Of a DNA stretch of 64,000 bases, positions 11,023-19,330 are shown piece after piece. The DNA comes from Bacteroidota bacterium (lineage in GTDB: Bacteria; Bacteroidota; Bacteroidia; JABEUT01): NCBI GenBank assembly GCA_013288205.1, contig JABDCH010000001.1, forward strand, positions 3,480 through 67,479, written 5' to 3'. Both the position numbers and the translations under genes were made by a program. Positions within the stretch are counted from its first letter, which is position 1. Every line of letters starts with the position of its first letter. The notes beneath the pieces are model-generated. The model saw only the letters and a program-made list of their open reading frames with translations. It was not told the DNA's origin and did not search any database.

Positions 11023-11346
11023 ATGGATACCCGAAAAACTGTCTTACTGGCCTTAACAATCACCCTTACTTTAAAAGTATTTGGTCAATCACAGCAGCCG
11101 AATCCCAATACGCTTCTCACACCCAATTACACTAAGCCTGTCCCAACCCAGACTAGCACTGCTACGCCTATCACTCCTTACACGAATCATACTCCCGGTT
11201 CATCGGCACCTTATACGTACCCGCCACTACCCCAACAAACATCACCACCGCCTCCGGCAAATCCACCCCCGCTTACTCCTCCTAACCCTATGGTAGCACC
11301 TACTATAACTGAACCTACTCAGCCACCTATACCACCGCCTAAATGA
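11023..11346 (+). CDS. Small Pro/Thr-rich secreted protein (hypothetical)
   Basis: Signal peptide MDTRKTVLLALTITLTLKVFGQ followed by a low-complexity P/T-rich tail. No recognisable domain. Confidence 0.35.
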   Translation: MDTRKTVLLALTITLTLKVFGQSQQPNPNTLLTPNYTKPVPTQTSTATPITPYTNHTPGSSAPYTYPPLPQQTSPPPPANPPPLTPPNPMVAPTITEPTQPPIPPPK

Positions 11347-11446: not shown

Positions 11447-11894
11447 CTATACTAAATACTTCTCTTCAAATTGAATGTCGTGCTCTCTAAGTATTCGTTT
11501 ATACTCCTCCAAGAATGATTCCTTTTTGTGATGTTCTTTTTGATTTTTCACATAATTTATTATAATATCACGATCTTCTTCGGAATAAGTAAACGCGCCA
11601 TATTCTTCTTGCCAACCTTTGAAAGACGGAAATTTTTTGCTTTCTTTTATCCAAATACTACTTGTTACCTTAATATCTTTCACATAATCAGCCAAGGAAA
11701 CCGATGGATGTAAATCTGAAACAATGTGAAGATGGTCTTCTATCCCATTTATGCGATACAAATGGCATCCATGCCCTTTAATTATTCCCCAGATATATTT
11801 CATACAGTTCATCACAATGCACTTCAGTAATAGTACGCTCTCGATTTTTAGTGCCGAAAATTATTTGATAGGTTATTTGATGGAAACTGCCCAT
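11447..11894 (-). pseudogene. REP-associated tyrosine transposase (RAYT, IS200/IS605 Y1 family), disrupted by a 1-nt frameshift near position 11800
   Basis: The upstream frame encodes MGSFHQITYQIIFGTKNRERTITEVHCDELYEIYLGNN*. The downstream frame (listed ORF 11447-11815) continues ...KYIWGIIKGHGCHLYRINGIEDHLHIVSDL...SSIWIKE...YGAFTYSEEDRDIIINYVKNQKEHH. The HuH motif HLHIV and the catalytic-Tyr region are both present. The two frames join by a single extra base in gaaAtatatc. Confidence 0.75.
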
Positions 11895-11959
11895 TCTCAG
11901 ATATTTTAGAAGTCAAATATAAAGATGAATAAGATTCAATTACATTAAAGTTTGATAGC

Positions 11960-12210
11960 AGACATATAGAACCCTTCGGGTTCTATATTAGTAGCCACCG
12001 ATGTAATCGGTGGCAGATATAAACAGCACATATTACAACCCTGAAAGGGTTGAATATTAAATCATACAAATACCAACCTTTTATTCAACCCCATCGGGGT
12101 TGGGATAATATTCATTTGGTATTTCCACCGATGTAATCGGTGGCTACTCACATTAAAGCCCTCCGGGCTTATTTATTCTTCATTCTTAGTCCTGATAGCT
12201 ATCAGGATTG
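11960..12210. repeat. Array of ~7 REP-like palindromic hairpins (BIME-like cluster) adjacent to the RAYT gene
   Basis: Hairpins seen directly: atatagaaccc-ttcg-gggttctatat (11964-11989); gccaccgat-gta-atcggtggc (11994-12014); caaccc-tgaaa-gggttg (12036-12052); caacccc-atc-ggggttg (12086-12102); ccaccgat-gta-atcggtgg (12125-12143); agccc-tcc-gggct (12157-12169); perfect 16-bp palindrome cctgatagctatcagg (12191-12206). Confidence 0.8.
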
Positions 12211-12221
12211 CTCCTTCATTT

Positions 12222-13865
<1,644 letters not shown>

Positions 13866-18725: not shown

Positions 18726-18809
18726 GTACCCGGAGTCGGAATCGAACCGACATTCTCGTGAAAGAACTGGTTTTTGAGACCAGCGCGTCTACCTATTCCG
18801 CCATCCGGG
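18726..18809 (-). tRNA. tRNA-Leu(CAA): tRNA-Leu (anticodon CAA), long variable arm
   Basis: The reverse complement reads GCCCGGATGGCGGAATAGGTAGACGCGCTGGTCTCAAAAACCAGTTCTTTCACGAGAATGTCGGTTCGATTCCGACTCCGGGTA. It has a 7-bp acceptor stem, an anticodon stem CTGGT/ACCAG with loop CTCAAAA, a T-arm GTCGG-TTCGATT-CCGAC, and a 16-nt variable arm. Confidence 0.85.
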
Positions 18810-18879
18810 CATGAAAAGGGGTTGCGAAATTAGAAATTTTTTTAACATACACGGATACAAGTTATGGAGTCTTTCACTT

Positions 18880-19203
18880 TCACTTATTGTCCCTGTCATC
18901 TGCCAATAAGTTATATTTATCAATTAGTTTTTGAGAGATTTCAGGATATCTTCTCAGGTTTTTTATATACATTCTGCTCTTCATTCTTTTTAGATGGCTT
19001 TCTATTTTCCTGGCCACACCAATTTCAAGATTATCTATTTGGAAAAATAATTCCCAATCAGCATACCTTGTAGTAAAACTTCCGGGAAAGCTCTTATTTT
19101 TATGATATTCAATTCTGGAGGATAGTTTTTTTGTCGAACCGATATAAAATTTATCTGCCACTGGAGAATAAAGAATGTAAACTGCTCCCATTAAATTATT
19201 CAT
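18880..19203 (-). CDS. GIY-YIG nuclease-family small protein
   Basis: N-terminal VYILYSPVADKFYIGSTKKLSSRIEYH matches the GIY-x10-YIG...R...H core. 107 aa. Confidence 0.8.
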   Translation of the reverse strand: MNNLMGAVYILYSPVADKFYIGSTKKLSSRIEYHKNKSFPGSFTTRYADWELFFQIDNLEIGVARKIESHLKRMKSRMYIKNLRRYPEISQKLIDKYNLLADDRDNK

Positions 19204-19207
19204 TTAT

Positions 19208-19330
19208 TTATCAACCAGTCATTTGAACTGGTTTTGATCCTAATGGTTATCGGGACAGCGCGCCTACCTTCCCGATAGCTATCGGGACCGCCATCCGGGC
19301 ATGAAAAGGGGTTGCGAAATTAGAAATTAT
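19208..19330 (-). repeat. Disrupted partial duplicate of tRNA-Leu (anticodon arm through 5' end plus ~30 bp of upstream flank), carrying an inserted REP-like palindrome
   Basis: tttgaactggttttgatcc...cagcgcgcctacct...cgccatccgggcatgaaaaggggttgcgaaattagaaat parallels 18761-18838 (gaactggtttttgagaccagcgcgtctacctattccgccatccgggcatgaaaaggggttgcgaaattagaaat). Extra segments interrupt it, including the palindrome cccgatagctatcggg (19271-19286). Confidence 0.7.

Follow-up and report, generated by a model that had tools for sequence, protein, structure and literature searches.

Background

Systems in which repetitive extragenic palindromes (REPs) come paired with REP-associated tyrosine transposases (RAYTs) offer the textbook example of a transposase that has been domesticated and coexists with non-autonomous repeats of its own; work on them has dealt almost wholly with Proteobacteria and class 2 enzymes. 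REPs of the GTAG super-family are defined by a 5' GTAG (GT[AG]G) at the foot of a short stem-loop and by their extragenic position. According to the text passages of Di Nocera et al. 2013 (PMC3733652), GTAG repeats occur in Proteobacteria, Cyanobacteria, Chloroflexi and the Planctomycetes-Verrucomicrobia-Chlamydiae (PVC) group, while those of Bacteroidetes are CGTC repeats only. Here we describe a locus from a Bacteroidota bacterium (assembly GCA_013288205.1, contig JABDCH010000001.1), located around positions 11447-12207 of a 64-kb stretch of that contig, the whole of which is called the window below. It comprises a transposase gene of the Y1 (HUH) type, interrupted by a single extra base, and an adjacent cluster of GTAG-tagged hairpins. 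We consider it quite probable that the locus is a REPtron, that is, a low-copy, vertically inherited Y1 gene together with its cognate REPIN (a doublet of inverted REPs).

Among the enzymes of the same superfamily, the transposases (TnpA) of IS608 and ISDra2 use a tetranucleotide guide 5' of the subterminal hairpin to pick the cleavage site. Subclass 1.2 of the TnpA-Y1 proteins, as delimited by Quentin et al. 2018 (PMC6006769), is characterized by a length of about 148 aa, the HuH motif DH[IV]H, the W motif WQ and the Y motif Y---Q--HH (YIKNQKEHH). Bertels et al. 2017 (PMC5581495) described IS200 Group 3 as RAYT-like: it has neither duplicates nor copies on plasmids, and the 16-mers that flank it are unusually abundant. 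That group is probably the subclass 1.2 clade. In the literature searched, a link of the subclass 1.2 family to REPs seems not to have been described, or at best to have been alluded to, and a search of the literature after 2018 on REPINs and RAYTs in Bacteroidota found nothing relevant.

The transposase gene and its protein class

The gene and the base that interrupts it are located as follows.

11447..11894, minus strand: Y1/HUH transposase gene of the TnpA-Y1 subclass 1.2 type, 148 aa if uninterrupted (PF01797, NCBIfam IS200, motif comparison)
11801, minus strand: single extra base, G on the gene strand and C on the plus strand (alignment with L002, L135 and L007)

As found in the window, the gene is split into two overlapping minus-strand open reading frames (ORFs), 11778..11894 (38 aa, MGSFHQ...LGNN*) and 11447..11815 (122 aa). 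A previous examination of the letters and ORFs alone (the sequence-only reading) had ascribed the split to one extra base near 11800, and nucleotide alignment with three intact homologues, from loci L002, L135 and L007, puts the inserted G at position 94 of the gene, which corresponds to 11801 in the window. The frame is lost after codon 31 and a premature stop follows at 11778-11780, leaving the reading frame interrupted; the alignment has one gap column and reveals no second indel or stop in the gene. When the base is removed, the 148-aa protein matches the Y1 transposase family PF01797, on which that reading had made its interpretation depend, at profile positions 2-121 of 121 (E=3.9e-22, 79.1 bits, cut-off 23); the unrepaired fragments score 13.7 and 59.5 bits. 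The motifs DHLH (HUH) and WQ and the tyrosine motif YVKNQKEHH all remain encoded in the frameshifted gene.

The repaired protein has 2,067 homologues, mostly of 147-148 aa, and intact relatives lacking the frameshift, which the sequence-only reading had suggested looking for, are up to 87% identical. It scores just above the cut-off of NCBIfam IS200 (57.5 vs. 55 bits), and its best matches in the PDB are the ISDra2 and IS608 TnpA proteins (E=2.5e-6 to 1e-3); at E<=1 the same search did not match E. coli TnpA-REP. In the alignment with ISDra2 TnpA, DHLH and YVKNQ fall on its HUH and Y motifs, with the catalytic tyrosine on the C-terminal helix. The class 2 RAYT signature Y---NP is absent and the tyrosine motif is instead Y---Q--HH, which also occurs in the module-associated genes of a Verrucomicrobia metagenome-assembled genome (MAG; L044) and a Planctomycetota MAG (L075). 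The assignment to subclass 1.2 follows from motifs alone (148 aa, DHLH with L for I/V, GWQ and YVKNQKEHH), by comparison with the motif table (Table 1) of PMC6006769 rather than by scoring a subclass hidden Markov model. As judged by these features the protein is an IS200-like TnpA-Y1 of subclass 1.2 and not a canonical class 2 RAYT. The proposal of a REP/RAYT locus is right at its core: a Y1 gene does lie beside cognate GTAG-tagged repeats, but motif, PDB and NCBIfam comparisons place its enzyme outside class 2.

A single REPIN of two inverted three-hairpin modules

Between the start of the Y1 gene and the stop codon of the neighbouring ABC-F gene, positions 11964-12207 contain seven perfect GC-rich palindromes. 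A palindrome scan yielded 24 loci in the whole 64 kb, 29% of them within the 0.4% of the sequence that this cluster occupies. The 19-mer CCACCGATGTAATCGGTGG is found exactly twice, at 11995 and 12125, where shuffles expect 0. Seven REPs in an array had been proposed here; on comparison with relatives, six of the seven hairpins instead form a mirror-symmetric unit of two inverted modules of ~90 nt, and the seventh palindrome is unrelated.

11965..12054, plus strand: REP module B (covariance model R1, 72.8 bits, E=1.4e-13; perfect stems)
11964-11988, plus strand: X hairpin of module B, core GAACCC/GGGTTC
11991-11994, plus strand: GTAG tag of module B, directly before the Y stem
11995-12013, plus strand: Y hairpin of module B, the REP proper
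12036-12052, plus strand: Z hairpin of module B
12084..12173, minus strand: REP module A, inverted relative to B (model R1, 84.9 bits, E=4.1e-16; inverted arms I1 and I2)
12156-12170, minus strand: X hairpin of module A, AAGCCC/GGGCTT
12144-12147, minus strand: GTAG tag of module A, directly before the Y stem
12125-12143, minus strand: Y hairpin of module A
12086-12102, minus strand: Z hairpin of module A

Each module consists of the X hairpin (RARCCC, loop, GGGYTY), a linker of 5-8 nt, GTAG, the Y hairpin, an AT-rich spacer of ~25 nt and the Z hairpin (CAACCC(C), loop, (G)GGGTTG). The Y hairpin of the window is CCACCGAT, a 3-nt loop and ATCGGTGG, giving an 8-bp stem. Because only Y carries GTAG at the foot of its stem, it is regarded as the REP proper, with X and Z as accessory hairpins. 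Both tagged Y hairpins are intergenic, as REPs of the GTAG super-family are. The two modules are 29 nt apart, and the whole REPIN measures ~200 nt. Folded as single-stranded DNA, positions 11960-12178 reach -53.8 kcal/mol (z=-10.8), and the two modules pair with each other at long range, as expected of a REPIN or bacterial interspersed mosaic element (BIME).

Model R1, built from 50 modules (alignment A1) and run over the window with filters off, found two significant matches within the 64 kb, namely modules A and B; the next match, an unrelated one, has E=0.7. A loose scan of the window for GTAG/RTAR-tagged hairpins gave 45 matches vs. ~32 in shuffles, and since only the two known copies among them are convincing, the window holds no solitary REPs. 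At the Rfam gathering threshold the whole window yielded a tRNA-Leu alone, and the hairpins match no RNA family.

The module accompanies the gene in relatives

Seven intact homologues were selected on the protein alone (L002, L005, L007, L008, L147, L148 and L150). Their genes lie in seven different neighbourhoods, beside ABC-F, UvrB, transketolase, Mrr, a DoxX-family protein, asparaginase and a sigma factor, and in all seven R1 modules are found within ~100 nt of the gene; the repeat thus travels with the gene and not with the chromosomal site. The usual layout is a plus-strand module, the gene and a minus-strand module, so that the gene occupies the position of the REPIN spacer. Modules stand on both sides in six of the seven contexts, on the 3' side only in L148, and on the 5' side only in the window. 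At the orthologous locus L002, which belongs to the nearest relative, the 5' side of the gene has two REPINs and the 3' side an inverted pair, as against one REPIN 5' and none 3' in the window.

At this orthologous site (L002:5511-5948 vs. window 11965-12173) the X hairpin and linker are nearly identical, and the Y stems are wholly different: CCGTCCGCC and CCCCCGAT in L002 vs. CCACCGAT in the window. The REP proper is turning over fast at a syntenic locus, and the number of REPINs differs too, two vs. one.

Two further loci show how such arrangements can be enlarged. The locus of a homologue of 78% identity (L135:4410-5931) is a large REPtron with one module 5' and nine 3' of the gene (four full REPINs plus one extra module). 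At L008:3450-4330 the Y1 gene has on its 3' side a tandem array that repeats every ~380 nt and contains a 100-N assembly gap; each unit joins a module to a duplicate of the upstream Mrr-like gene's final ~13 nt.

Modules and complete REPINs without the gene

Scanning a genome collection for the X-plus-tag pattern GGCTACTN{5,8}RARCCCN{3,4}GGGYTY gave at least 119 matches; among the matches listed are Bacteroidota, Verrucomicrobiota, Planctomycetota, Myxococcota and other groups, mostly with no Y1 gene in the 8-kb chunk. A metagenome scan for the window's exact GTAG-Y sequence, GTAGCCACCGATNNNATCGGTGG, returned 19 stretches. The full X-Y-Z | Z'-Y'-X' order is present in 18 of these, and a Y1 gene is nearby in three. 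Run over 53 loci, mostly from Bacteroidota and metagenomes, R1 found 107 modules; in 41 of these loci the DNA examined contains no Y1 gene.

Some of the loci come from one and the same genome. In Chryseobacterium zhengzhouense, L027 (with the gene) and L090 lie ~200 kb apart on one contig, and one Bacteroidota MAG contains L071 (with the gene) and L085. Huijunlia has two loci, L051 and L078, with the gene in neither, and L124 contains a full REPIN whose Y sequence is that of the window, with no gene close by.

Six loci of MAG RGIG464, which is labelled Proteobacteria (L020, L059, L089, L094, L111 and L121), share an identical GGCTACTCGCCCAAAGCCCTACGGGCTT 5-13 nt from the locus ends, and five of the six end at true contig ends. 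As high-copy repeats typically break assembly at such ends, this genome probably holds a large repeat family.

Conservation of structure and strand asymmetry

The hairpin structure was evaluated on a model-based alignment (A2) of 98 distinct modules, which was used for the X and Z helices in place of the MAFFT alignment A1, where the X and Z stems are shifted by one column in some rows. In A2, 92% of cells pair and 19 of the 21 pairs have changes on both sides; in the Y helix 97% of cells pair, both-side changes occur at seven of the eight pairs and most positions show four or five pair types, although the paired percentages are inflated by the pre-filtering of A1 for the Y hairpin and the fitting of A2 to the model. 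No shuffle reaches the observed values for any of the three helices, and slid controls are 30-50% paired. Given the pairing and covariation of the Y helix, and the excess of all three helices over shuffles and slid controls, the hairpin structure is under selection.

The modules are also asymmetric with respect to strand. The tag is GTAG in 65 and ATAG in 20 of the 98 modules, and on the GTAG strand the loops have the form G-N-A in 70 (X), 74 (Y) and 56 (Z) of them, as against 0, 6 and 3 with the complementary T-N-C. When closed by C:G, triloops of the G-N-A type give DNA mini-hairpins of very high stability. Such strand-specific loops fit a single-stranded DNA substrate, as used by HUH enzymes.

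The window itself departs from this pattern at two loops. The Y hairpins at 11995-12013 and 12125-12143 are identical on the plus strand (loop GTA) despite the inversion of the modules, so that on the tag strand of one module the loop reads TAC, which is not G-N-A; in the plus-strand module the X loop (TTC, 11975-11977) is flipped likewise. The flipped loops suggest loop inversion or gene conversion between the two arms.

Inheritance and state of the copy

The gene was compared with its ortholog in L002 alongside its upstream neighbour, which serves as the synteny anchor.

12222..13853, minus strand: ABC-F type ATPase, 543 aa (Pfam ABC_tran twice and ABC_tran_Xtn)

Both loci have the same gene order (ABC-F, REPINs, Y1, Pro-rich protein), with 87% identity of the Y1 protein and 92.8% of ABC-F. 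The ratio of nonsynonymous to synonymous divergence (dN/dS) is 0.053 for the Y1 gene (dS 1.33) and 0.040 for ABC-F (dS 1.11). Such co-divergence with its neighbour, under strong constraint, implies a gene maintained by the host until very recently, unlike a selfish insertion sequence (IS), and its inheritance looks vertical. The 64-kb window contains one subclass 1.2 gene copy.

The copy in this genome looks inactive, with its +1 frameshift and the absence of 3' modules. The frameshift could also be a sequencing or assembly artefact, or be bypassed, in which case the gene would be intact and active, but we find this unlikely. The ORF is otherwise perfect and bears no trace of relaxed selection, hence the frameshift is either very recent or an artefact, and the contigs with the extra base may stem from one read set. 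Against an artefact, the base lies outside any homopolymer (TAT-G-AAA on the gene strand, TTT-C-ATA on the plus strand), which speaks against the homopolymer error that the sequence-only reading had proposed to exclude by resequencing. It moreover appears in contigs of differing length from JGI, Logan and NCBI sources, the identical frameshift being found in a JGI metagenome contig (100% identity over 11,632 bases) and in a Logan assembly. Bypass would have to operate without a slippery or stop-codon context, and none of the homologues aligned has the frameshift. The 3' flanking modules are missing as well, consistent with decay, and their absence favours the view that the decay is real.

Programmed +1 frameshifting was considered separately and rejected, as the shift is not conserved in any homologue and no slippery/stop-codon or other recognisable shift site is present.

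A second possibility is that the locus is an ordinary autonomous IS200-type IS whose left and right ends are the modules, moving with the gene as one unit. The protein is indeed of class 1 and IS200-like by sequence, and in most relatives the gene is bracketed by a module on each side, in varied neighbourhoods. Nevertheless, IS200/IS605 ends share one orientation on one strand, whereas the modules flanking this gene are inverted. The synteny of the gene with host genes, its divergence in step with them and its dN/dS of 0.05 are likewise at odds with such an element, as is the occurrence of modules and full REPINs without the gene in 41 of 53 loci. An IS of the IS200/IS605 type is expected in multiple near-identical copies, yet in a relative where two paralogues apparently share one genome (as a shared SRA run suggests) these are only 82% identical. 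The literature, too, describes subclass 1.2 as devoid of IS properties. Taken with the inverted modules, these observations make an autonomous IS improbable.

It is very hard to sustain that the hairpins are terminators or mRNA stabilisers of ABC-F unconnected to the transposase: the cluster lies directly 3' of ABC-F, one hairpin is terminator-like (but on the plus strand, opposite both genes) and REPs elsewhere affect mRNA 3' ends according to passages of the literature, yet the same three-hairpin module, with its GTAG tag, stands beside UvrB, transketolase, Mrr and sigma factor neighbours and flanks both sides of the gene in relatives, and in the more distant relative L122 it sits 5' of the ABC-F gene. 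Terminator function could be a side effect of the hairpins.

Proposed function and points against it

For a REPtron, the biochemistry of IS608 and TnpA-REP suggests by analogy that the folded Y hairpin would be bound by the protein on the strand with GTAG. By the same analogy the GTAG tetranucleotide would act as a guide selecting a nearby cleavage site, and single-stranded DNA would be cut and rejoined, probably at replication forks, whereby REP/REPIN units would be spread or removed. Possible roles of the X and Z hairpins are to keep Y in register, to delimit the unit at its ends or to serve as terminators.

Several points weigh against the REPtron interpretation. The published survey lists subclass 1.2 as "REP: no" (PMC6006769). 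Binding and cleavage by the protein are proposed by analogy, subclass 1.2 having no known biochemical activity. As the 64 kb hold no module outside the locus, the REP family may be very small or extinct in this genome. The paired percentages are inflated as described above, and the assemblies with the extra base may share one read set, so that the base may be an assembly error.

Putative promoter and 3' neighbour

One further feature lies upstream of the Y1 gene.

11914..11921, minus strand: putative Bacteroidota-type -7 box, TAtaTTTG, ~20 nt 5' of the ATG, read by eye

The Bacteroidota -7 promoter consensus is TAnnTTTG, and the stretch TATATTTGACTTCTAA, which covers the putative box region, is identical in the orthologous locus L002. 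A sigma-70 promoter scan found nothing above chance; the Bacteroidota consensus differs from that of sigma-70.

On the other side of the gene, at 11023-11346 (plus strand), is a 107-aa Pro-rich protein with a signal-peptide-like N terminus and no Pfam match. This neighbour is conserved beside the Y1 gene in L002, with 55% identity.

A separate palindrome family and the tRNA-Leu region

The seventh palindrome of the cluster belongs to a different family.

12190..12207, no strand assigned: loop-less perfect 18-nt palindrome TCCTGATAGCTATCAGGA, lying 15 nt downstream from the stop codon of ABC-F

The sequence-only reading had pointed to a palindromic 16-mer here and to a variant in a pseudo-tRNA. 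Both exist, CCTGATAGCTATCAGG at 12191-12206 and CCCGATAGCTATCGGG at 19271-19286, the latter in a duplicated 5' half of tRNA-Leu(CAA), and each extends to a perfect 18-mer. The variant had been interpreted as a dispersed REP copy suggesting activity of the element family. The 18-nt palindrome was rejected as a REP of this system: it has neither loop nor GTAG tag, lies outside both R1 matches and is missing from the orthologous locus L002. The palindrome in the pseudo-tRNA is then no dispersed REP and is therefore uninformative on RAYT activity.

Members of this loop-less family, TCCYGATAGCTATCRGGA, are found at 12190-12207, 19270-19287 and 19238-19255 of the window and, as exact relatives, in two unrelated metagenome loci (L131:1577-1594 and L141:214-231). 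The tRNA-Leu fragment carries two copies, a degenerate one among them, as insertions in its D-loop and anticodon-stem regions. This fragment, at ~19225-19330 on the minus strand, duplicates the 5' half of tRNA-Leu(CAA) and ~45 nt upstream of it. A 107-aa GIY-YIG ORF at 18880..19203 on the minus strand (Pfam GIY-YIG, E=1.8e-8) separates the duplicate from the intact tRNA (18726-18810), and this arrangement, within 18726-19330, looks like a small GIY-YIG element inserted at a tRNA gene.

Significance

For the window alone the outcome is modest, a single decayed copy. More broadly, a protein that groups with IS200 by sequence behaves genomically like a RAYT, with GTAG repeats, REPIN doublets, synteny and purifying selection. 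We put forward tentatively, and with somewhat more doubt than confidence, that the subclass 1.2 Y1 proteins (Y---Q--HH) are a second lineage of transposases associated with REPs and maintained by the host, present in Bacteroidota with fewer examples in Verrucomicrobiota and Planctomycetota, whose cognate repeat is the three-hairpin module (X, GTAG-Y, Z, with G-N-A triloops on one strand), an association that the 2018 survey would have missed. In many genomes the gene sits at the exact centre of the doublet, as would be expected had REPINs originated from an IS200-like element through internal deletion. Should this hold generally, it would supply the missing intermediate between IS200 elements and REPtrons and would extend GTAG-guided recognition beyond class 2. 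The compact substrate, a 90-nt module with an 8-bp Y stem, would be well suited to biochemistry.

Comparison with known systems

With the IS608 and ISDra2 TnpA proteins, its closest solved structures, the protein shares the HUH and Y---Q catalytic layout. Elements of the IS200/IS605 group are multi-copy and mobile and have both end hairpins on one strand, whereas the gene described here is syntenic and constrained and its modules are inverted.

The repeats resemble the GTAG families of Di Nocera et al. 2013 (PMC3733652), whose text passages describe a GTAG tag, stems of 6-9 bp, very short loops and head-to-head dimers with conserved spacers, with some families lying within larger conserved palindromic tracts. 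The X-Y-Z module was not found in those passages, consensus figures aside.

The resemblance to subclass 1.2 of Quentin et al. 2018 (PMC6006769) covers the protein (148 aa, DHxH, WQ, YxKNQKEHH) and its occurrence in Bacteroidota, and may extend to low copy number, diverged paralogues and the lack of IS behaviour. Every member examined here, by contrast, is flanked by GTAG- or RTAR-tagged modules, against the "REP: no" of that survey.

Class 2 REPtrons such as E. coli YafM and the S. maltophilia REPtron Sm differ in the enzyme, which here has Y---Q--HH instead of Y---NP, finds no TnpA-REP match in the PDB and passes the IS200 NCBIfam, and in the repeat unit, a three-hairpin module of ~90 nt instead of a single tagged hairpin. 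The S. maltophilia REP nevertheless has the same format as the Y hairpin, GTAG followed by an 8-bp stem and a 3-nt loop (PMC8266576). In both cases an apparently low-copy Y1 HUH gene is flanked by inverted GTAG-tagged palindromes, the repeats also occur elsewhere as doublets (REPINs/BIMEs; here in relatives), and the gene looks vertically inherited and evolves in the manner of a housekeeping gene.

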